Shown here: piece by piece, positions 3,122 through 54,600 of the stretch | Layout: every line of letters starts with the position of its first letter | How positions within the stretch are numbered: position 1 is the stretch's first letter | Origin: Carcharhinus longimanus | Lineage: Eukaryota | Direction: 5' to 3' | Length of the DNA: 64,000 nt | Assembly (NCBI GenBank): GCA_030264375.1 | Contig: JASCQW010000156.1 | Coordinates: forward strand, 12,262,158-12,326,157 | The notes under the pieces: generated by a model | Seen by the model: the letters and a program-made list of their open reading frames with translations, nothing else | Told to the model about the DNA's origin: nothing | Database searches by the model: none | Translations under genes and position numbers: made by a program

Positions 3122-3310
3122 ATTTCACAGGTGCATACTGTTGCTGAGGTAGAGTTTCACAGGTGCCTACTTTTGTGGTGTTAGAGTTTCATGGGCACAC
3201 ACTGTTGCTAGGGTAGAGTTTCATGGGTGCCAACTGTTGCTGGGGTGGAAGTTCACTGGTGCACGCTATTGATGGGGTAGAGTTTCATGGACCACACTGT
3301 TGCTGGAGTA
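3122..3310. repeat. Degenerate minisatellite, ~32-bp unit, ~6 copies
   Basis: Repeating agagtttca(c/t)(a/g)ggtgca.actgttgctggggt. Confidence 0.85.
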
Positions 3311-3984
3311 AATAGCATCAACTTACTCAGTACGAATGGAAAGATCAAACCTGGAGTCTTTCTGTTTTGTGTAGTTCAGCAACAGCCTGAGTAGTGCAGT
3401 TACTCCATGAACCATCAGCAAAGGTATATTTTATGCTCAGGTCAAGTGTCACTCAAATCCAATGTTTGTCTGAGGAAGAAGCTGAAGATTATGTTCCAAA
3501 TGACTATGGTTTTCTTTATGCAGTCGCAAAGTATTCATGATAGTTCCTAATCCATCACGATTCAATAATAATGCAAAACCTAAACACAGAAGTTATCAAG
3601 CAGTGAAGAGTTGAACAAAATCACTCAGCACACACCCCGTCCTGCTTGGCTGCATTTGCCTCTATCCACTTAAATTTGATGCTATTTTTACAACTGTGTC
3701 CTATAGCATGACGCCAGTGGGATTATTTCACTCTGTGATGGTTTGAAATTTGACCATGAAGATCTATGAATGTGATACAGAGAGATCAGCATTCTCTCAC
3801 ATAACTAGAGTCAGTGGAATGTGAGTGATATTGGAGTGAATTTCTTATTTTCTAATTTAGTTTTGCCACTCCCTAAGGCCAGAACACCAATATCTCTGTC
3901 GAGACTTTTTTGTCACATTGACTAGGTCTCTGAGAATGAGATATGAATGACCTCCAAATCTTCCCCCTTTGCATAATTAATATT

Positions 3985-4400
3985 ATGTTTGCTCGCTTTC
4001 TGGCACTACAAAAACAATTTCTATTTCTATTAGCAGCATAGCCAAGCATTCCAAGGCACCTCACAAGGGCATAGTCAGACAAAAATTGACATCAAGCTAA
4101 AGAAGGGGATTTAGGATAAGTGCATAAAGGAGTTATCTAAATGAGAAGGAAGAGATGGAGAGGTTTTGGGAGGCCATTCCAGAGTTTAGGACCAAGTTGG
4201 TTGAATACACTTCCGCCAGTGGCAGAATGAAACATGTGAGGAATGCATAACAGGCTGGAATGTGGCTTGTAGGGCTAGAGAAAGTTAGAGATAGGGATGG
4301 GTGAGGCAATGGAGAGATCTGAGCACTCAGTTGGGAAGTTTTAAATTGACATATACTTACTCTGCCTGTCAGCCTGTTGTAAAGTGAGTTGAACAACCCA
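3985..4400 (-). mobile_element. L2-like LINE 3' remnant
   Basis: aaggaagagatggagaggttttgggaggccattccagagtttaggacc motif, paralleled at 7930-8230. Confidence 0.55.
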
Positions 4401-4874
4401 TGTGACCGCATTAAGAGCGATGTCTGGTAGGATGGGATCTGATCTGAGGTTACTTCTATATAATAAAGTTAGACAATTAGTTTGCACCATGCCAGAAGCC
4501 GAAGAACACATGGAGCTGCCTTAGTAGTCTAGAGTCTGACCATAATGGCCTGTTGAGGAAAGAAGCTCATGTGGGATGTTGGGCCCAGAACCCCAAAAAA
4601 TTTGTTTTGAGACCAATCCATGTGCAAAAAGAGGGGGATTGATATCTTATCAGAAAGAGTTTTCAAATTAGAAAGATATCAATAGCACTGCTTTCGGGAA
4701 AGGAAATCAACATTCTTTAAAGCTGACAATCAGTATTTGGTGTTAAAGGGATATCCATGGTAAAGCACTTCACTTAACTGGCTTACTCAAGAATCTTAGT
4801 GTTGTTATATACTACACACTCTCTGATATCTCCAGGACCTAGACACCCTCTTCTTTATACTTATTAGGGCAGTT

Positions 4875-8230: not shown

Positions 8231-8318
8231 AAAATGTTGTTGTAAAAGGCACAAAAACATTTCAAGCTGTACAGTAAGTCTCCTCATTTTATTCTCTCTT
8301 TTTCCCCCCAATGTTCAG

Positions 8319-8668
8319 GTGACAGTGAGGTGGTAGATAACATGTATGAAACAGATCCTGAACCACCAGCTGGGGAGAGCGGAGAAGAAGAAACAGAAGA
8401 CAGCATCATGTCTCCAATTCCTGTGGGCCCACCATCCCCACTTCCCCCCAGCAATGAATTCACTCCAAAGGAAGGGTCCCCTTATGAAGCCCCTGTCTAC
8501 ATTCCTGATGACATTCCAATCCCACCTGACTTCGAGCTGAGAGAGTCTTCAGTCCCTGGAGCAGGATTAGGGATTTGGGCCAAGAAGAAGAATGAAGTAG
8601 GAGAGAAATTCGGTCCCTATGCAGGGATTCAGAGGGTGACACTAAAGGACCCAAACTTCGGATGGGAG
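8319..8668 (+). CDS. PRDM16: PRDM16 coding exon 2 (internal exon; N-terminal region and start of PR/SET domain)
   Basis: Pyrimidine tract plus ttcAG acceptor (8317-8318) and GAG|GTCAGT donor (8669). It translates (S)DSEVVDNMYETDPEPPAGESGEEETEDSIMSPIPVGPPSPLPPSNEFTPKEGSPYEAPVYIPDDIPIPPDFELRESSVPGAGLGIWAKKKNEVGEKFGPYAGIQRVTLKDPNFGWE. VVxNMYE and MSPIPVGPPSP point to PRDM16 rather than MECOM. The 350-nt length and phase 1 start/phase 0 end match the mammalian exon 2 as I recall it. Confidence 0.96.
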
Positions 8669-41300: not shown

Positions 41301-42164
41301 ACTTCTCCAGATTAAATTATATTTGCCATTTTTCTGCCCAGTCACCAAACCACTGGCGTCATTCTGGAGACAGTTCTCTGCTCTATCACCTATGTGGCCA
41401 ATTTGTGTATCATCCCAACCACATTTAAGTCCAGATCACTTATATACAGGCAGCAAGTGCCCCAACACTGAGAAACTGGAAACTGCTTTCCATTCGCAAA
41501 ACCACCCATCAACCATTATCCTTTGTTTCATGTCGCTGAGTCAATTTTGGATCCAACTTGCCACTTTTCACTGTATCCCATGGGCTTTCACTTCCCCGAT
41601 CAATCTGCCATGCCTTTCTAAAACAATGCAGACCACTTCCACTGTAGTATCCTTATCAATCATTGTTAATTCCTGAAAAAAATGATTAAGTTAGACATGA
41701 CCATCCTCAAACTGACAATCCCTGATCAATCCATGCCTTTCTTAGTGACAGCTTATCCTGATACTGAGAATTAATTCCAATAATTTATCTACCACTGAAG
41801 TCAGATTGACTGACCTATAATTTTCTGGTCTATTCCTCACACCCTTTTTAAATAGGGCTACAATGTTCACAGACCTCCAGTCCTCTGGTACTTCATCTAT
41901 ATCTAGTGAGGGATGGAAAACAATCCTCAGAGCATCCATTATTCCCTCCCTGGCTTCCATTAACAGCGTGGGATGCAATCCACCTGGCCCGGGTGATTTA
42001 TCTGACTTTAAGAATGTCAGTCTCTCCTGTATTTCCCCTCTTATGATACTTACTGTATCCAATACTTTATACTCCTGCTTTAATTAGAAGGTCTGTTTGG
42101 CGAAGACAGAGACCAAATACTCATTGAGAACCCTGCTCACATCTTCTGCATTGAAGCATAGTTG

Positions 42165-42490
42165 CCATTTATTCACCAAAGACCTTCCAAACCTATGGCT
42201 ACATCCACCTGGAAGGACAAGAGCACAAAATACATGGGAATACCACCACCTGCAAGTTTCCCTCTAAGCCACTCACCATCCTGACTTGGAAATATATCCC
42301 TGTTCCTTCACATTCGCTGGGTTAAAATCCTGGAATTCCTTCCCTGAAGGCATTGTAGATCAACTCACAGCACATGGATTGCAGAGTTTCAAGAAGGCAG
42401 CTCATTATCACTTTCTCAAGGGCAACTAGGGATAGGCAATAAATGCTGGCCATCCAGCGACACCCATGTCCGGTGAATGAAATTTTTTTT
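42165..42490 (+). mobile_element. 3' end of another non-LTR retrotransposon (family uncertain)
   Basis: caagaaggcagctcattatcactttctcaagggcaactagggataggcaataaatgctggcc tail; reverse fragments at ~11935, 14985 and 40480-40745. Confidence 0.65.
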
Positions 42491-42704
42491 TAAATGCACA
42501 TCTCTGATGGGCCCTCTCCATTTTTGTTCTTAATATACTGGTCAAATATCTTCAGGTTTTCTTTGATTTTACCTGCCAATATTTTTTACATTTCCTCTCT
42601 TTGCGTTCCTAATTTCTTTCTTTACTTCACCTCTGTATTTTCTATATTCCATCAGACTTTCTACAGAATTATGCTCTTAGTGCCTGTCATAAGCTTTCTT
42701 ATGA

Positions 42705-42909
42705 CAGACACTAAGGGCAAGTTAGTATGGCCAATCGACCTAACCCGCACATCTTTGGACTGTGGGAGGAAACTTGAGCACCCAGAGGAAACCCACGCAG
42801 ACACAGGGAGAATGTGCTAACTCCACCCATACAGTGACCCAAGTCAGGAATCAAACTCAGGTCCCTGGAACTGTGAGGCAGCAGTGCTAACTACTGTGCC
42901 ACCATGCCG
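42705..42909 (-). mobile_element. HE1-like SINE, 5' half
   Basis: ggaaacccacgcagacacagggagaatgtgc..gcagtgctaactactgtgccaccatgccgc. Confidence 0.85.
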
Positions 42910-43300
42910 CATGCCATATGTTTCTGGATAACCAGAGAGCTCTAGATTTGGCAGTACCCACTTTTCCCTTTGTGGGGACATTGCCTGTGGAATCTCGCTT
43001 TTGAATGCCTCTCAATGATCTGACACTGTTTTTCCTTCTCATAGCTATATGCAGTCAACTTAGGTTTATCCATCAGCTTTGTAACATTTGTCTTTCCCCA
43101 ATTTAGAACTTTTACCCCTGTTCTATCTTTGTTCTTTTCTATAATGATGCTAATTATTGTTATTATCCTCATAATGGTCCCCCACTGCGGCTTCATCCAC
43201 TTGTCCAGCTTCATTTCCTCAGACTAAGTTGCATCCCCTCTGGTTGGGCTTGTTATGTGCTGACTAGAAAGGTTCTCTTGAATTCAGTTCAAGAATATTG

Positions 43301-44588
43301 TTGATCACCCAAATAAGGAACATAATGAACAATAACAGGTACCCCAAGTGTTCTAAGGATGTGAAGCCCAAATACAACAAGTTATGAGGAGTAAGCAATT
43401 TTTATCTGGGGCANNNNNNNNNNNNNNNNNNNNNNNNNNNNNNNNNNNNNNNNNNNNNNNNNNNNNNNNNNNNNNNNNNNNNNNNNNNNNNNNNNNNNNN
43501 NNNNNNNNNNNNNAACCAGTTCCCTTTGCAGGTTCACTTCATCATCAATCAAATGATCCCTGATAGCTGGAGGGTGGAGGATAATGGCGAAAGTATTCCA
43601 ATTTGACCTACTGTATTGGAAAGTTTCAGTGTATCGAATTATCAATGGCCACCATCCTCACCCCTCTCCCCACCCCAGAGAAGCTAAGTTGGTCAATGTT
43701 CTGTGTAAAATAGAATGGAACCAGCCACCAATCACAGTCTGTGCCAATTAGATTGATCAAAACTACAACCAGTTAATCTAGAACAGTCTTTCATACTGTT
43801 TGCATTCCAATTGATATTCGGGTAGTTGAAGCCCCCAACAAATACTGCCTTCTTTTTTTGCATATAGAAATTTGCTCTTCTGACTCCTCGCTATTTGGGA
43901 GTCTGTAGTTCACTCTTCGTATGTGGCTGTCCCTTTTTAATTTCTGAGTTCAACCCATACAGCCACATTTGATGCTTCCTTCAGTATATCATCCCTCCTC
44001 AGCCGTAATGATTGATATTTTTTTGAAGGGAGGTTTGAAGTGGCATTTCCCAGGGGTCAGGATTGGGATCCTTGCTTTCTGAAGTTATGTTGGCAAACTA
44101 AGATTAAGCACTACACTGTGTCTATCTGTTAGACCTGTGCTATATGGTTCTAGATTAAGTGGTTGTAGTTTAGATCAATCTAATTGGCACAGACTGTGAT
44201 TGGTGGCTGGTTCCATTCCATTTTACACAGAACGTTGACCAACTTAGCTTCTCAGGGGTGGGGAGAGGGGTGAGGATGGTGGCCATTGATAATTCAATAC
44301 ACTGAAGCTTTCCAATACAGCAGGTCAAATTGAGATACTTTCGCCATTATCCTCCACCCGCCAGCTATCAGGGATCATTTGATTGATGATGAAGTGAACC
44401 TGCAAAGGGAACTGGTTAAAAGTGCAGCTACTGAATGAAGATTTCACTTCACAGAAATATGCTATTATGGCATGTTGCCCCAGATAAAAATTGCTTACTC
44501 CTCATAACTTGTTGTATTTGGGCTTCACATCCTTAGAACACTTGGGGTACCTATTATTGTTCACTCTGTTCCTTATTTGGGTGATCAA
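43301..44588. repeat. Long inverted repeat: arms 43301-43784 and 44147-44588
   Basis: Arms are reverse complements end to end (ttgatcacccaaataaggaac..ttaatctagaac vs gttctagattaa..gttccttatttgggtgatcaa) with scattered substitutions; spacer ~360 bp. Confidence 0.95.
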
Positions 44589-45199
44589 GCTTTGACTCCT
44601 TGCATAACCCAGTGTCCAAATATCTCTGTCTCAGTAGCGATCTTCTGATGGTGATTTGTACCATGATGGTCAACTCTGTATTAAATATTACCTGATGTGG
44701 TTCAGCAGTTCCACCCTGGCATGGCAATCTGTGTCACATTTGCTGCAGAAGAAGACAGTGGGATGAGGTGCACAATTCTCCGGTGTCTTCTTTCTCTGCA
44801 CCCTCTTTTCAGCCAGCTGAATTTTCTGTTTCTTTCCAATGCCCTTCCAGTCAGCTTCCAGAGATCACAAACATAAGCGACTGACTCCCTGCTGTCTGTT
44901 ACAATATCTTCATATCTGGCTTGTAGATGTCCTTGTAACAGAGGTATGGACACCCAGGTATGGTCACACCTTGTGATCCATCAATCAGTTTACCGTACTC
45001 AAGGTCTTTGGACTTATTGCCATCATCCATCCAATGAACATGGCCAAACCAAATATCAGGTTACTTCCAACTCACTCCATTTTAGTTGATAATGATTATT
45101 TAACAGAAGCTATTGCTTGCCATCTGATATAGTCCCCATCAACATATTACAACTGCACAATGCAAAGTTAAAACATCTCTATGCTTCGGACTAGATTAA

Positions 45200-45620
45200 C
45201 ACCCAAGTGAAGCACTGAAGTAGGACAGCACTGTTGAAGGTGTTGCATTTTGGATCAAGTTTTAAACTGTGGTTCTACCTGCCTCTCTCTAATTTGAATA
45301 AAAGATCTCATGGCATTACTTCAAGGGAGAGCAATGGAGATATTCCCATATTCCCAGGTGCTCTAGCCAATACTTATGGCTCAATTAACATAATGGAATC
45401 AAATGATTTGAACATTAAGATAAAAGCAATTCTGACAAAGTATCATCCAAGCTCAAAACATTAGCTCTAACTCTGCAGATGCTATCAGGCCTGCTGAGAT
45501 TTTCCAGCAATTTTGTTTTTGATCTAAGCATATTCTTATTGTTGTTCATGGGTCTGTCCTGTGTGCAAATTGGCTGTCAAGTTTCTTTTAAAAGTGACTA
45601 TACTCTAAATGTGCTTCCCA
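45200..45620 (+). mobile_element. DeuSINE-like remnant containing a Penelope-like insert (~45430-45522)
   Basis: aaaagatctcatggcattacttcaaggga..ctgtgtgcaaattggctg; insert ctctgcagatgctatcaggcctgctgagattttccagcaattttgtttttg. Confidence 0.55.
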
Positions 45621-46369
45621 GAGACATTTCTCTTAGCTAATCAAAAATCAGCATTGAAATTATCATACAAATCAAATTTGGTCCATAACTACCTCATCTA
45701 TTATCTGACCAAAGAAACAATCACTAACCAGATTGCTTCTAGACTGCTCTCAGCTGAAAGTGCACAAAACCTGTTTCTCTGCCTTGCACTTTTGCCTCTT
45801 CTCAGAGCACACACATCAATTTGACTCATGAGCCAATTTGCATTCCTGAATGTGGGACTATTAAAAAGCTTCCAGGAACCTGAAAAGTCTGTGGTTCAAT
45901 AATATTCCAATTAAATGATTGCTGCTCTTTGTTTTTCTCACTCTGGTTTCACAGCTCCGTGGATATAACTGTCCTCTGGTATCTTACTCATACGTCCATT
46001 CTTCATGCATGAACACAATCATCTATTCCACTGTGAATGGCATTGCGACTGAGCTTGATTCTATCCTCATCTGACATCCACACATGTGCATTTAATAGCA
46101 GTCAAGAGAAGGAACCCTGGCCATTATTCCCTTGCCAGCCCAAGTGGACTTGAATCAATTGTGATAACCCAGAATAAGCTAACCCAACACGTTCCAGGGA
46201 TGTGCTGCATTGGATCACTCTAGGATTGTGAGTCAGAGGACATGAATTGCCTCTGCATCAGTAGACCATGAATTAGTTCCCATTCTTGACCACTATCAAG
46301 TGATTCCTGCCACAACCCACTTGCATCTCTGGGCATAGTGTATACAGGATCTGGCTGCAAGTGAATTTA

Positions 46370-46535
46370 AAAGCAAAATATTGTGAATGCTAGAATCTGA
46401 AATAAAAACAGAAAATGCAAGAAAATTTCAGCAGATCTGATAGCATCTGTGGGGAGAGAGTAGAGCCAATGTTTTGAGTCTAGAGGACCTTTTGGTTCTA
46501 TTCTGCTGAGAGTTTCCAGCATTTTCTGTTATTTA
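46370..46535 (+). mobile_element. Penelope-like short element with inverted terminal copy
   Basis: aacagaaaatgcaagaaaatttcagcag (~46407-46434) versus ctgctgagagtttccagcattttctgtt (46503-46530). Confidence 0.6.
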
Positions 46536-47604
46536 GCTTGCTGACCTTATCGGTCAGATATGAAGATTAACCACTTTTGCTCAGTCCCAGGAACTAGCTA
46601 TCATCCTGTGGAACTAAACACAGCTTGATTTACATATCCTGAGGAGACGAGAAAAGAAAGGCATTTAAAAAAAAAATTAGGGGAGGTTGACAAAATGGAT
46701 GGAGAGTGACGGCCACCCCAGGCCAGCAGCAAGTTCATTAGTTGAAGTGGAGAGGAGAGGGCACTCAGCTCTGTGAATGTTCTTGGGACAATGAAGTAAA
46801 GAAATAGGAGCTGGAAGCACCAACTAAATTGTTGGTGAATTAGCTGAAGTCAGAAGCTCCTGAATAGTCTGAAGTAGGGACGGGAAATGCTAGACATGTG
46901 CACAATTCAGACTGAATTAGGTAATCTATTCAGAGCAAATGAAAAGACTGTGAGCCTTCTTTCTTTAGGTAAATTGGGAGGAAATTCCTTTTTTTTGTCA
47001 GCAATTCTGAAGGGCTTGAGCTTTTCAGTTAGTTACCTGAGGCCCACAGGGCAGTGAAAGACAATGAAAGGGAAATGCTCAATAAAACTACTAGCACTGT
47101 ACAGATAAATTGGTAATAAATGAAGATTTCAGTCTGAGCTTCAAGGCTTACAGTGTCTGTGAGACCAGCAGCATTAGGGGAAGGGGTGGGAGGGGACATG
47201 AAGTGGTATTGTACCCTCCTGACCCAAATTTAACAGATTTAGTCAATACGAAATCTTTGTTTAAAGACAGTCTAAATGGCCAGCTTTCCTGCATGACAAT
47301 ATGTATAATAAAAACAGGCTTAACAAAACAGTAATAATTGAACAAAAAAACTTTTATGCTCATCTTCTCCCTTTCTGGAAGGTGGCAATTCATGAAAGGA
47401 AGGAAAAGGAACAACTTGGATTTTCACAATTTCAGGACATCCTAAAAGGAAATATATACCCAATGAAGTACTTAAGAAGTATAGTCATTTTTGTAATATA
47501 GGAAATGCTGTGTCAATTGCAGGCACCAAATTCCCACAAACAGCAAAGTGATAGATAGGTTCATGCTTTCCTTGGAGGATCGCCAACTCTCCAGGATTGT
47601 CCAA

Positions 47605-48217
47605 GGGTGGAATTTAATTCACGTGAATGGAAGGCCGCCCTTCAACTGGAGAGCCAGTGACAGCCAGGTCTCACCTCCACTTCGGCATGCAGGTGGCCAA
47701 CAGCAGACCTTCCCCAGGATCAAGGACCCTGGGAACAAAAGTCCCCAGCTTCTCATTGCCATCAGTACCACCGAGAGAGTGGTGGTAGTTGCCAGCAATG
47801 CACCCACCAAAGGCCAAGGATCAGTGAGTGATCAGGCTATAGCTGAATGAGGGCAGAATGAGAGTGGTGGGGAGTATCAGAGAGTCAGAGCAAAGGGTGA
47901 CTCATATGGGCCCCACTCACTGGTACCAGATCACTCAATCAGACACTGAGTGCCCGATAATGAGGGAAACTTCCCGGGAGCTCCCACGTGCTGACTGTCC
48001 GGTCCGCCACAGATGCTCAATCAGCAGAGGTTGAATGAGGCCCTTAAGTAGTCATTAGTTGCCACTTAAAATCATCAGTTTGTGATGGGACATATGTCTA
48101 TGCAGTAGTTGGGACAGAGGCTGGAAGGTGGCAAAGACCCCACTCAATAATCTTCTACCCAATTAAATGGCACTTTGTCTCCAAACTTGCCTGGTGGAAG
48201 AGCATTAAATTCTGCCC
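47605..48217. mobile_element. Non-autonomous Harbinger-like element with 14-bp TIRs
   Basis: gggtggaatttaat ... attaaattctgccc (12 of 14 complementary). Confidence 0.7.
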
Positions 48218-48580
48218 TATTTTCACCAAAACATGACGGTTAATATTCTGGACACAGCTGTTAGCAGCCTAGGAGAAAAATCACAGAAATATTAAAAATT
48301 ATGTTTTTTTCACTTTTAATGGGTGGCATCTTACCAAAGAAATGGCAAAGTGTCAGGACCTGACTGAAAACCAGCAAGAAACAGGCAGATTTTATCTCCA
48401 GATCTTACAATACTTTGTCAAAAAAAATCAGGGGGGCATGGTTCACGTGGTCATGTTGAGGTGTGGAGCCTAAACACACTGGCAAAGCCTGGATGCGCTG
48501 AGATCTGAATGCCATTTTTAAAGGGCACCTCAATCAAAGGAAGAAATAACTTTTCCACCATCCCACCACAAGGGATGGCA

Positions 48581-48695
48581 AGGGATACAATGGTTGGCAC
48601 AGCTGCCTCACAGCCAGGTTTGATTCCTGGCTTGGATCACTGTCTGTGCGTAGTTTGCATGTTCTCCCCATATCTGCATGTGTTTCCTCTGGGTG
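48581..48695 (+). mobile_element. HE1-like SINE 5' fragment
   Basis: gctgcctcacagccaggtttgattcctggcttggatcactgtctgtgcg. Confidence 0.7.
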
Positions 48696-48699
48696 CACC

Positions 48700-50660
48700 A
48701 ATGGGGATTTATCAATCTTCAGCCCTGTTAATTTCTCCAATTAAACCTTCATTAGATTAGCGAGGCACCTGTGTCGGCACAGTCTTGGTAGGCCGACACA
48801 GTTCCTGTGCTGTTTTGTTCTTTGTTCATACTATTACAAATTTCCTTCAATTCCTTATTCTCCCTTGTCCCTTGGATCTCTAATTCTGGGAGATTTTTTG
48901 CATCTCTCTCAGTGAAGATAGACACAAAGTAATCATTAAGTTTCTTTAGCTTCTCTGCTATTTTGCTATTCCCTGTTATAACTTTTCCTGTCTTTATCTG
49001 TAATGGACCCACACTTGTCTTAGCCAAAGATTTATTTTTTAAGTACCTGCAGAAACAGTTACCATCTGTTCTTACATTTTTCCTAGTTTACATTCTTATC
49101 CGAAGCTTCCTTTCTTTATCAGTTTCCTGGTCCTCCTTAATGTATTCAAAAATCTTCCTGATCCTCAGGTTTATTACAGTTTCTGGTGGTTTTATAGGCC
49201 TTTATTTTTAATCTTTAATCCTTAATTTCCTTTTTAGCCACAGTTTCTTTGGGTGTTTATACCTTGAATGTATGTGTAAATACTGCAAATTATGTCATAA
49301 TGATTATCCATTGGAAAAGACTATTATATATTTTGTTGCATTTTCCCAATCCACCTCAACCAACTTACTCCTCATACCTTCACTTAATATCCTGGCTTCA
49401 GATTGAACTACCTCCCTTGCCGCATAATGTAAAACTTTATCATATTATGGTCACTCATCCCTCAGGCTCTTTTACAAGATTATTAATTAGTCTTTTTTCA
49501 TTACATAATACCAGATCTAAACTTGTTTGTTCTCCAGTCAATTCCTCAACATTCTACTCAAGAAAATGATCCCTAACACACTCCAGAACACTGCAGAAAC
49601 TTGCCTTTCATTACATTAGCACTTATCAGATTTCCTCAGTCTTTATGCAGATTGAAGTCACCCATGATCATTGTATTACCCATACTACATACTTCTCTAA
49701 TCTCCTGACTCATACCATGACCCACACTACCACTATTGTTTAATGGCTTATAAACAACTCCCACCAGTGTATGCTGCCCCCTTGCTGGTTCTTAGCTTCA
49801 CCCAAACAAGTCCTCCATTTTGTTCTTCCAAACTGAGATCTTCCCTTATTAATGTACAGATCCAATCCCTTATTATCAGCGCAACCCCACTCCCTGCCTG
49901 TCCTTAATAAAAATTAAGTGAAGTAATCAACAGTGGATTTCTCCTCTGATTACATCTGCTGGATGCATGAATGTCAAAGGAGGCCTTAGCTCCGATGTCC
50001 TCCAAGACAAATACTGAGTACCCAATATTCCAGTGTTGCAATTGTTAGAGGTTTCATTTTATGATGTGAAATGATACATTTTGGTGGGAAAAATAAGGAG
50101 AGGCATTATGAACTAAATAGTACCATTTAAAAGAGTGTGTGTGAATTGAGAGACTGGGGAATACATGTACACAACTATTTGAAGGTGGCAGGAGAAGTTT
50201 AGAAGGCTATCAATAATATTAATAGGAGATTATTGAATAGTGAGTTCCTAGTCTTGGTCACCCTGCAGCCATATTTATGGTAATTAGATCATACACATTT
50301 ATCTCTATTTATGCCTTTTAAATCTTGTTGTGATTTCTGCATGCATTCAGTAGAGTGCCTTTAACTTAGTCTTTCTGATATTATTCCACGTTCTAGATTC
50401 AGTTGATGCTTGCCTTCATTTTGCTTGTTGTATAATTTCACTTTTCTACTTCCCATTACCAGCTTTACTTTCTTTCAATTTGAACTACCCCTCGGAGTCC
50501 AACCTTCCTGCCCAACAGCACTAGCAAAGCTCCCTGTGAGGATATTCGTCCTGGTCCTGTTCAGGAATAACCTGTCTAGCTTGTACAAATCCCACCTGTC
50601 CTAATGCCACAAAATCTGATTGCCCCCCCCCATACCAATCTTCCTATTCTCATTCTCATC
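48700..50660 (-). mobile_element. CR1 LINE ORF2 5' part (endonuclease/linker), decayed
   Basis: LKIDKSP; VGPL...G.VI..AEKL..YFVSIFT; MIMGDFNLH; WLQGDQD*EL; DRQGVGLR. Confidence 0.85.
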
Positions 50661-50719
50661 CTGTCGAGATGTGCAATGATTGATAGTAGTTGAAAATACA
50701 CACCCTTAAAGGTACATGG

Positions 50720-51665
50720 GCCTCATATCAGAACAAAAGTTATCTAATAATTCCAATCACCTGTTCTTTCCCATAACCCTTCAAGCATTTATCAAATTGA
50801 CTTTAAAATGTTGTTGTTGAAACTGTCTCCACCACTCTCAGCTGGAATAATCAACAGTAAATTTCTCCTCTGATTCTCTGATCACATCTGCTGGATGCAC
50901 AAATGTCAAAGGAGGCCTTAGCTCCGATGTTCTCCAAGACAAATACTGAGTACCATCTAGTGCCCAACATTCCAGTGTTGCAATTCTTAGAGGTTTCATT
51001 TTATAATGTGAAATGATACATTTTAGCAGGATGAATAAAGAGAGGCACTGGAATGCAGTGCATTCCAAATCACAGGAACATACTGAGTAAGAAATGTTTC
51101 CTCATGTAGCCTCTGGTTCTTTTGCCAGTAGTCTTAAATTTGTGTCCTTTGGTTACTAATTCTTGGAAACATTGGCAGGATTTTCTAGCCATGCTTGCCC
51201 CAAGTTCGAAAAATCCCATCTAAGGTCAACAGACCTTTGCATCGTCCACCCTCCGGATCGCTACAGTTCCGTGATGGGCAGAATGGGAAAATGTCACCCA
51301 TTGTCTCCTTATTTACACTTTCAAAACCATTCATGATTCTGAACACCTCGATCAAATCTTCTCTTAATTTTCTTTGCTCTAAAAAAAACTAACCCATCTT
51401 CTCTATTTCCTCAAAATAACTGAGGCCCTCATCTCTGGTACCATTTTATTATGTCTCTTATGCCCTCGCTGCTCCAAGGGCTTGACATCTCCTGTTAATA
51501 AAGCCAGGCTTTTTGATAGCCTTCTAAGCTTCTCCTGCCACCTTCAAATAGTTGTGTACATGTACTCCCCGGTCTCTCAATTCACACACACTGTTTTAAA
51601 TGATACTATTTAGTTCATAATGCCTCTCCTTATTTTTACCGCTAAAATGTATCATTTCACATCAT
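50720..51665 (-). mobile_element. 5'-truncated CR1 LINE with MITE (51174-51299) and inverted insert
   Basis: catgattctgaacacctcgatcaaatcttctcttaa (LR.DLIEVFRIM); aaaatgtatcatttcacat (CEMIHF) at the truncation. Confidence 0.8.
51174..51299. mobile_element. Short MITE
   Basis: ggcaggattttc / gaaaatgtcaccc termini, flanked by att on both sides. Confidence 0.7.
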
Positions 51666-54600
51666 AAAATGAAACCTCTAAGAATTGCAACACTGGAATG
51701 TTGGGTACTCAGTGTTTGTCTTGGAGAACATCTGAGCTAAGGCCTCATTTGACATTCATGCATCCAACAGATGTTATTAGAGGAGAAATCCACTGTTGAT
51801 TATTTCAGTTGAGAGCAAGACTGTATGAGTCTGGCTATGATCGGATTGGGCAGCAGTTTTCCACCTTTCATGGTCAAATAGCCAGTTGACAATGTCTCAA
51901 CACAAAGCATAGCTAGTTTGACAATGTACTAGAGGACGACTGGTACNNNNNNNNNNNNNNNNNNNNNNNNNNNNNNNNNNNNNNNNNNNNNNNNNNNNNN
52001 NNNNNNNNNNNNNNNNNNNNNNNNNNNNNNNNNNNNNNNNNNNNNNNNNNNNNNNNNNNNNNGGGTGTTGAAGCTAATGCTTGGAATTAATAATTAGAAA
52101 ATTTAATACTCCTAATTCTACAGTAACAAATTGTAAGTTGTGCATATATAGGGAGTTTAACCATAGCAATGAATGTTAGATTGCCTTGTACAATGGTTTC
52201 AGCTGTTTCATGTCATTTGTTTGAGAATCAGCTCCTTGTGTAATGAATGGATAGCGGGGCTAGTATTGAAAGCAAAACAATGAATCAAAGGGATTTCTAC
52301 AAGTTGTAAACTTGTTTTGTGAAAGTTGATTGATAATACCGCTAAAACATTAGTTCGATTCCGTTCTGAAACAGTATTCAAAAGACAAACAGTGATTGAC
52401 AGAATTCACTTAGCGATTTCAAGAATTATACTTGGACAAATTTACTCCCTTCATGTCTTGAAGTGGTTGGCTGTGCCAGGCTACTGTCAGCACTCAGTCT
52501 GTAAGAGCTTTTTGGCTATTCTACCATGAAGTTAATTGTGCCTTCATCTTGTTTTCACACAATGCATTTAGGATTCACTGGAGAGCAATCAATGGGCTCA
52601 AATTCCAGAAAAATCAAAGGTTATTTTGCTTAGAAACTTCTGTTTTTTCATTTTCTTATTAAAATGAGAGATATTAATGTTGGAGGAAGAAATCACTTAG
52701 GGAATGGAACACTCCCTGCCTTAGACAACTAGTGCCAGAAGTAGGCTCCATCTAGTTAGGTGCAGCATAAGTTAGATACAGAAGGTAGTTCCCTTCAGTC
52801 TACCTCTGAAAGCTACCTCAGTTCCAGCCAGAAAGGAGTACCCCCACTTCATTAATGCAATGCTTTTATCCAGCGCTTGAACCAGTCACCTCCAGGCCCG
52901 TTTCAAATGGCAATGCCAATGAGGAAGGTTTTATATTATGGGCTGGATTTGTATATTGATCCCAGCGTTGAGTGTTTAATCCATCAAGTACCTGATGCAA
53001 AATTCTGAGAATTCAATTGTTGACCAAAACACTGCTTTGCTAGGAAGGGTCAGTGCAAATGCCTTTGCTGATTTTATGATTTCCCAACTCCAGTGTATTG
53101 ATATCAATGCAAATTACAAGACACCCAGATAAAGGAATTTTCTTCCAATTTCCTGTTTTCCAAAAGAACACTGTCTTCACAAATGAAGTGTCTGACAAAT
53201 CTTTTCGTGTTGGCTGTTAAAGAAGGAGCCACAAAACGTGTATACCATTTTTACCATGATGTGTTGACTCTTTGGTGCAATGCTAATGTGTCCTGCTTTT
53301 GTAAACACATTAGCATTTGTCAAATGTAATCTGTAGAATTGAGAGCCTCAGCATCCGTTTTTAGCACTGTGGAAATGAATGGATTTTGACTGAGTTAAAA
53401 TTTCACCATCTGTGATGAGATGAGATAGCATGACCATTTATTCAACTTTGAACCTGATAACCAAACTCTGTGTTTCTTACTCTTTAAAAAAAAAGATGAG
53501 ATGCGCATGCATGGAGCAAACTAGCTACCTGAAATTGCAATTGAGCCTATGTTCAGTTTTGTGAATGCCTGTTCAGATCAGCTTTTCTTTATTTTCTGCT
53601 ACTCTCCTGTTCAGAAAACCATCTGGTGTTTGACAGGGCACAAGGTGGCCACATGACAACAAAACCCTGAAGCAAGATGACCCTTTGTTCATTCAATATC
53701 CCCTCCTCCACAATCTCACCCCCCACAATCCCAGACACCCCACCCCTCACCCCAACCCCCACCACCAAACTGGGCTCCCTTAACCTGAAGCAGAGACCGA
53801 AAGAGAAAAATAGTGCAAATTTGGAATCCAGAACATCATAAGATAATGAGAAAGCTGATTACTTTTAATGCCAGTTTCCCCTTTGACTCATCAACCTCTC
53901 TTTCATGGTTTCTGGTTCTCAGCCTTCCTCGTCCTTGCTAGTTTATTTTAATTCCCTTTGGGTAATCCAACTCCTTGAGGAGTCAGAAACTACAATTCCA
54001 GGGGAAGATAAGTGTGCTGATTATAGGAGTATAATATTTTCTTGTTTACCAAAGAATGATCATCATCCAGTTTGACCTAAAATTCTCAAAGTTGCAGTAT
54101 GGAAACAATTATCTGCCTTACACTGTGCTACAGAAAAGAATTGGTTCATTTAAATTTTGCAAGATATCAAGTTGCCAGTGGCAAAACTAACCTTACAGAG
54201 CATGTGAGAATTGCTTAAAAGAACACAAATATTTTTCTGCTACTTTTAATTAAAGTACATTTTCAGACTGTCCTTATATAACTGTGAGGAAATAATAACT
54301 TCCATTTATAACATTCTAAATTTTGTGAAGTGTGAATATTTTGTGATTTAAATTGGCCCATTCCTGACAGATGTGATGAAGAACAGTAGCGTTAGAGTCA
54401 GTGATTTTGTATTTTGGTATAGTTTTCAGGTGCTCGGAGCAACATCAGCATGACTCCATACTGTTAACGTATTTTCTATCCAAAAACTCTGTCACTTTGC
54501 AACAGGGAAATTAAATCCTGACGCAGGGCAGACATTTAGGAAGGCACTTGCTTAGAAAAATAGATGTTTTGCAAACTTTTCCTTTTTGAGGTGAAAGGAT

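Follow-up and report, generated by a model that had tools for sequence, protein, structure and literature searches.

An old inverted templated insertion within a CR1 fragment, probably intronic to a PRDM16/MECOM-family gene of Carcharhinus longimanus

The inverted repeat located at 43301-44588 of the DNA analysed here (the window: 64,000 nucleotides of contig JASCQW010000156.1, assembly GCA_030264375.1, positions 12,262,158 to 12,326,157 of the forward strand) results from an inverted templated insertion that is old, confined to one locus and of a type already known, and is probably neutral. In the preferred reading, to which a probability of about 0.8 is attached, the left arm was copied in inverted orientation from the right arm, once and in the germ line, by fold-back or template switching at a broken end, and was left as a probably neutral intronic scar. 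The single event matters little in itself; as an example of germline templated insertion it is clean, with a known polarity and a relative date. The relevant features of the window are listed below.

8318..8662, plus strand: PR-domain exon of the host gene, likely PRDM16 (E 2e-30 to PDB 2n1i)
41500..43300, minus strand: 3' continuation of the decayed CR1 found in the spacer (CR1 alignments resume at 43299-43301; stop-riddled translation)
43301..43413, minus strand: left arm, outer part, derived copy of 44476-44588 (113 nt, 97.3%; adjoins CR1 resuming at 43300)
43414..43513, no strand: scaffold gap of 100 N (counterpart of 58 bases in the right arm)
43514..43784, minus strand: left arm, inner part, derived copy of 44147-44417 (271 nt, 95.9%)
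43785..44022, minus strand: 5' part of the interrupted CR1 fragment, in the spacer (70-79% identity to 40 other places; translation)
44027..44078, plus strand: small piece of a different abundant repeat within the spacer (numerous unrelated contigs align to this part alone)
44147..44588, plus strand: right arm, single-copy donor, 442 nt (no other genome match; one uninterrupted contig in organism F)

Structure of the inverted repeat

The arms were delimited by comparing the window to itself. The outer pieces (43301-43413 and 44476-44588) match in inverted orientation over 113 nt with 3 differences (97.3%), the inner pieces (43514-43784 and 44147-44417) over 271 nt with 11 differences (95.9%), and the spacer between the arms measures 362 nt. 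In all, 14 differences, consisting of 9 transitions and 5 transversions, were counted over 384 compared bases (3.6%, CI 2.0-6.0%), which are those seen in both arms out of about 442, the true length of the left arm being an inferred value. The left arm contains a 100-N scaffold gap (43414-43513) whose counterpart in the right arm is a segment of 58 bases (44418-44475). A preliminary description of the locus had presented 43301-43784 as the reverse complement of 44147-44588; its outer coordinates are correct and the gap had been overlooked. Identical bases border this gap, 77 on one side and 57 on the other, which would explain why the short-read assembly broke there, a perfect run of about 190 bases across the gap being the likely cause.

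The interrupted CR1 and the direction of copying

Matches to the spacer part 43785-44030 occur at 40 other places in the genome, with 70-79% identity. The CR1 fragment that it carries is presumably from the endonuclease domain, as named in the preliminary description, and the neighboring fragment at 44027-44078 is presumably a CR1 reverse-transcriptase piece. The same CR1 continues on the other side of the left arm in a portion (41500-43300) that is itself interrupted by younger short repeats, and the CR1 readings reported earlier on both flanks of the arm are present in the minus-strand translation. At 10 of 14 loci the alignment of the CR1 relative flanks the left arm on either side, picking up again at 43299-43301. 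The orientation of CR1 is the same on either side, so the spacer was not inverted. The earlier proposal that the left arm is the derived copy is upheld by the continuity of CR1 relatives across the site and by organism F, in which a single arm is seen.

The junctions were compared to those of nine CR1 relatives with a short interval, L006 being excluded for its longer one. The interval between the two CR1 anchors amounts to 41 bases in six of the nine relatives, 34 in two and 20 in one, and the window displays 32 bases between the same anchors, followed by the insert; about 9 CR1 bases were thus lost at the insertion point, by comparison with the six relatives. Neither a target-site duplication nor an A-tail was seen at the junctions, and the AATAAA and ATTAAA motifs are absent from both insert and donor. 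No priming microhomology was found, as neither junction extends even one base into the donor flank. At most 1 base could be shared with the presumed CR1 target, a value that applies to an old event with an unseen ancestral target.

Proposed mechanism and known systems

Fold-back geometry fits the order observed on the minus strand, namely donor, spacer, inverted donor copy and rest of CR1. The process can be briefly pictured as follows. A break would have occurred at 43785 and the right-hand end would have been resected, exposing the minus strand. The exposed 3' end would then have paired with itself across a 362-nt loop and primed the synthesis of 442 nt on its own strand as template. The insertion would have been completed as the new strand unwound and was end-joined to the left-hand end, about 9 bases being lost. 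Template switching at a replication fork leads to an identical product, and the sequence does not reveal which polymerase and pathway acted. Features of templated inverted insertions are found at the locus: the inverted copy of a nearby template, the template still in place and the return near the exit point with about 9 bases lost. The event thus appears, by analogy, to work like fold-back or MMB-type events. The geometry, local origin and derived left arm of the templated fold-back insertion proposed in the preliminary description stand, and its assignment to this group in the strict sense is tentative because priming microhomology was not found.

Local fold-back inverted insertions at double-strand breaks have been described in yeast, with a hybrid route of this kind (Yu et al. 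2024, PMC11724301). These copies span 2 to about 150 bp, with a loop of 41 nt and a 10-bp imperfect inverted priming match, and the other end is joined with 0-5 bp of microhomology (PMC11724301). The shark insertion resembles them as an inverted copy taken from one side of the break with a loop between the arms; it differs from them in its considerably longer copy (442 bp) and loop (362 nt), in the lack of a visible priming match and in its fixation in the germ line. Human germline MMB-TI events (PMC8421209) are also germline variants in which an inverted insertion lies near its template. The search behind them was limited to templates no more than 100 bp away and to inserts not exceeding the read length, and junctions with at least 1 bp of microhomology account for 138/155 and 135/148 of them (PMC8421209), whereas no priming microhomology is visible at the shark junctions. 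A small loss, a duplicated nearby segment and two inverted joints on one chromosome are shared with the loss-plus-inverted-duplication 2-jumps of cancer (PMC7025897); those are somatic and were obtained from copy-number profiles, whereas the shark event is sub-kilobase, germline and old. A special importance of the locus is not supported, as similar pairs recur across the genome and the kind has been described in yeast and humans.

The insert could alternatively be a free DNA or cDNA piece of neighboring sequence (a flap, a sister-chromatid segment or a reverse-transcribed intron RNA) that was end-joined at a break in a manner resembling class 2 templated sequence insertion polymorphisms (TSIP); this is considered unlikely. 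The micro-deletion, together with the lack of target-site duplication, poly-A and clear microhomology, does resemble end-joining, and the donor lies within a probably transcribed intron. Class 2 TSIP insertions likewise display a micro-deletion at the site with neither target-site duplication nor poly-A; in those described, however, the donors are distant and a passage through RNA is proposed (PMC5110952), whereas the shark donor is adjacent, only 362 bases off. The target-site duplication and poly-A tail of class 1 TSIP and LINE-mediated insertions are not found here. Short-range inverted pairs are moreover enriched about fourfold in this genome, which points to copying in cis; since short-range direct pairs are also in excess, orientation alone is not decisive between cis copying and capture.

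Local pairs in the genome

The frequency of such pairs was estimated from 140 stretches of 10 kb, taken at round coordinates on 20 large scaffolds and totalling 1,216,471 non-N bases, to which 20 further 10-kb stretches downstream of the window were added. Tandem repeats were excluded, as well as pairs shorter than 60 nt or less than 85% alike, and expected numbers were derived from between-locus matches. At gaps below 1.2 kb, 18 inverted pairs were observed for 4.2 expected (p 5e-7) and 16 direct pairs for 4.2 expected. A pair was termed locally specific when its identity exceeded, by 4 points or more, that of any match found at other places in the sample. Six inverted pairs, distributed in 5 of the 140 loci, are of this type (4.9 per Mb, CI 1.8-10.7), which would correspond to about 11,000 genome-wide if extrapolated; three of these lie at or beside an N gap, and one of the three, the L062 pair, may be an assembly echo. 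Among the 13 locally specific direct pairs, 7 are copies lying on either side of a 100-N gap and are probably artefacts.

No inverted pair of at least 250 nt at 93% or more was found in the 140 sampled loci, so the pair at 43301/44588 stands at the long, young end of the distribution. The 20 downstream stretches contain no locally specific inverted pair, so the host gene is not a gene-wide hotspot.

A broader proposition would be that the slow-evolving genomes of sharks keep some ten thousand fixed local inverted copies, datable by species, reaching several hundred bases and exceeding the yeast and human lengths, and that those located in the giant introns of developmental genes, of which the two within 6 kb here would be an example, seed long dsRNA stems that are edited or bias splicing. 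Taken as a whole this is decidedly unlikely. The class may nevertheless merit a genome-wide census because sharks mutate slowly, as indicated for the epaulette shark (PMC10587355), and with such slow mutation their genomes may hold a long record of germline break repair. No published work on such pairs in shark genomes was found in the main texts retrieved, within an incomplete coverage of the literature.

Several other observations were made during the survey. Direct copies of 61-99 nt, 92-100% alike, lie astride 100-N gaps at L030, L038, L050, L119, L127, L132 and L154; they are likely assembly echoes and can mislead readers of the assembly. Further locally specific inverted pairs are located at L038:1959-2794, L047:4595-4984, L121:4368-9567 and L169:719-1093 and 3407-4616, with lengths of 69-293 nt and identities of 85-99%, mostly in non-repetitive DNA. 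A direct duplication of about 238 nt (87%) lies in unique DNA beside an N gap at L114:8139-9475 (G000:C156, downstream of the window). The window itself contains a second inverted pair about 5 kb away from the first (49916-50216 and 51510-51810, 301 nt, 93%), accompanied at 50835-51047 by a shorter third copy that is partly rearranged and contains small internal repeats. Other genome matches to this second pair, at 71-85%, are limited to its repeat-derived half, and its divergence is not significantly different from that of the first pair (p 0.08). Its left copy presumably lies within CR1-like sequence, a likeness for which the junction comparison gave no confirmation. The window thus has two long pairs less than 6 kb apart, whereas no pair of such length and similarity was found in the 1.2 Mb sampled. 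A degenerate tandem array with a 32-nt period is present at 3123-3290.

Host gene and predicted RNA stem

The host is a PRDM16/MECOM-family gene on the plus strand. The next PR-domain exon found after that of the window lies at G000:C156:12638343-12638501 on the plus strand, about 332 kb past the repeat, which is probably intronic with the plus strand as sense. PRDM16 and MECOM are not distinguished by the PDB scores: 2n1i is the best match for the window exon as well as for its paralog on C162, and the exon at 12638343 scores best on MECOM. PRDM16, named as the host in the preliminary description, is likely and not proven; it is favored over MECOM because PRDM2 is found on the same scaffold, PRDM2 and PRDM16 being linked at human 1p36. 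Aligned to MECOM, the two PR-domain exons are contiguous in residues, but relative to human PRDM16 they omit about 16 (2n1i 78-93); a short intervening exon may be absent from the shark gene, whose intron would then measure about 368 kb, or may have escaped detection.

The fold predicted for 43514-44417 reaches -585 kcal/mol (z -50.7 against 20 shuffles), and both arms persist in three organisms. The scar might on these grounds have been retained later for a function of its RNA stem within the host pre-mRNA, in editing, splicing or small-RNA production, a possibility that is regarded as very unlikely. Comparable folding is expected of any 271-bp inverted copy. Pairing on the sense strand is broken by 11 of the 14 differences, and of the 9 transitions only 3 result in G-U (p 0.91), so no bias towards pair-keeping changes is apparent. 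The divergence of the arm from organism F (9/214) is not significantly below that of the CR1 spacer (15/225, Fisher p 0.30), and Rfam returned 0 matches across 42500-52500. On these small numbers, the arm differences resemble neutral drift and give no hint of selection. As to the dsRNA stem of about 440 bp suggested earlier, a stem is indeed predicted by folding; it is interrupted by the N gap and shows no pair-keeping bias.

Copy number of the donor sequence

The right arm was searched against its own genome (G000), and the 2 candidates returned hold 3 matches, all at the locus itself; this search skips very common words and does not prove rarity alone. An nhmmer search with the donor, covering 160 sampled 10-kb stretches (1.6 Mb), 14 CR1 loci and the window, produced only the same three local matches. 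The arm is not high-copy, and the local origin proposed earlier, for which a genome-wide search of the arm had been advised, is borne out by these exclusively local matches.

Explanations by a transposon whose terminal inverted repeats are long, by two separate insertions of a repeat or by a template switch during the integration of CR1 itself would be scarcely tenable. They could draw only on the omission of very common words by the genome search. Neither the dispersed copies nor the arms bounding a foreign unit that would denote a DNA transposon are found: all matches are local, and the spacer is continuous with the CR1 beyond the left arm, so that the arms bound no inserted unit. The arms are 96% alike whereas CR1 is 70-79% like its relatives, and organism F carries the CR1 fragment together with one arm.

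Presence in other organisms and age

The stretch or part of it is present in 22 public runs, among which the contigs of X1 (organism A, possibly the source of the window), X6 (organism B), X8 (organism C) and X21 (organism F) were compared over 43514-44200. In X1, two contigs of 125 nt cover 43541-43665; one is identical to the left arm and the other displays six differences, the right arm differing from the left at six places in this interval (five of them listed). Contigs of the same run cross the junctions 43784/43785 (346 nt) and 44146/44147 with 0 differences, these two inner junctions, rather than the outer 43300/43301 or the N gap, being the ones spanned. Two parallel contigs, one left-type and one right-type, cover the arm in each of X1, X6 and X8, and the diagnostic differences at 43597, 43624 and 43635 separate the arms alike in all three related organisms. 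A contig of X8 also reaches 591 bases left of 43514 and is assignable to neither arm specifically.

An assembly echo, or two haplotypes set side by side, is close to negligible as an explanation and already largely refuted by the contigs of other runs: a 100-N gap does lie within the left arm and echoes do exist in this assembly, 7 of the 13 sampled direct pairs of the locally specific type straddling such a gap, but the arms differ by 3.6% (CI 2.0-6.0%), the X1 contigs contain both allele sets and both inner junctions, and both arm types recur in two other organisms. The two arm types of organisms A, B and C and the restriction of copies to the locus therefore leave neither an assembly echo nor a transposon. 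The preliminary description had already argued against an echo and had named a single copy as one of the results that would overturn its reading; two arm copies are seen.

Organism F is 4-7% distant from the window, farther than A, B and C. A single 730-nt contig of X21 runs from the spacer through the right arm (depth 6.7), and a spacer contig (depth 5.8), which shows 15 differences in 225 to the window and is far closer to it than any paralog, stops aligning at 43786, its 127 further letters not lying on the arm. These contigs strongly suggest that the site is empty in organism F, and with this organism as an outgroup, changes are found on both arms. The insertion would accordingly be placed, with strong support, after the split of A from F and before the split of A, B and C, and long after the landing of CR1 because CR1 is 70-79% like its relatives and the arms are 96% alike. 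Its presence or absence could mark the clade that contains organisms A, B and C. Absolute dating with the epaulette shark mutation rate of 7e-10 per base per generation (PMC10587355) was dropped, in view of its interval of 1.4-14.1e-10, the different species and the uncertain generation time. At 43678-43752, where the arms of organism A differ, X6 (organism B) displays one double-depth contig with left-arm alleles, reflecting either arm-to-arm gene conversion or bubble removal by the assembler.
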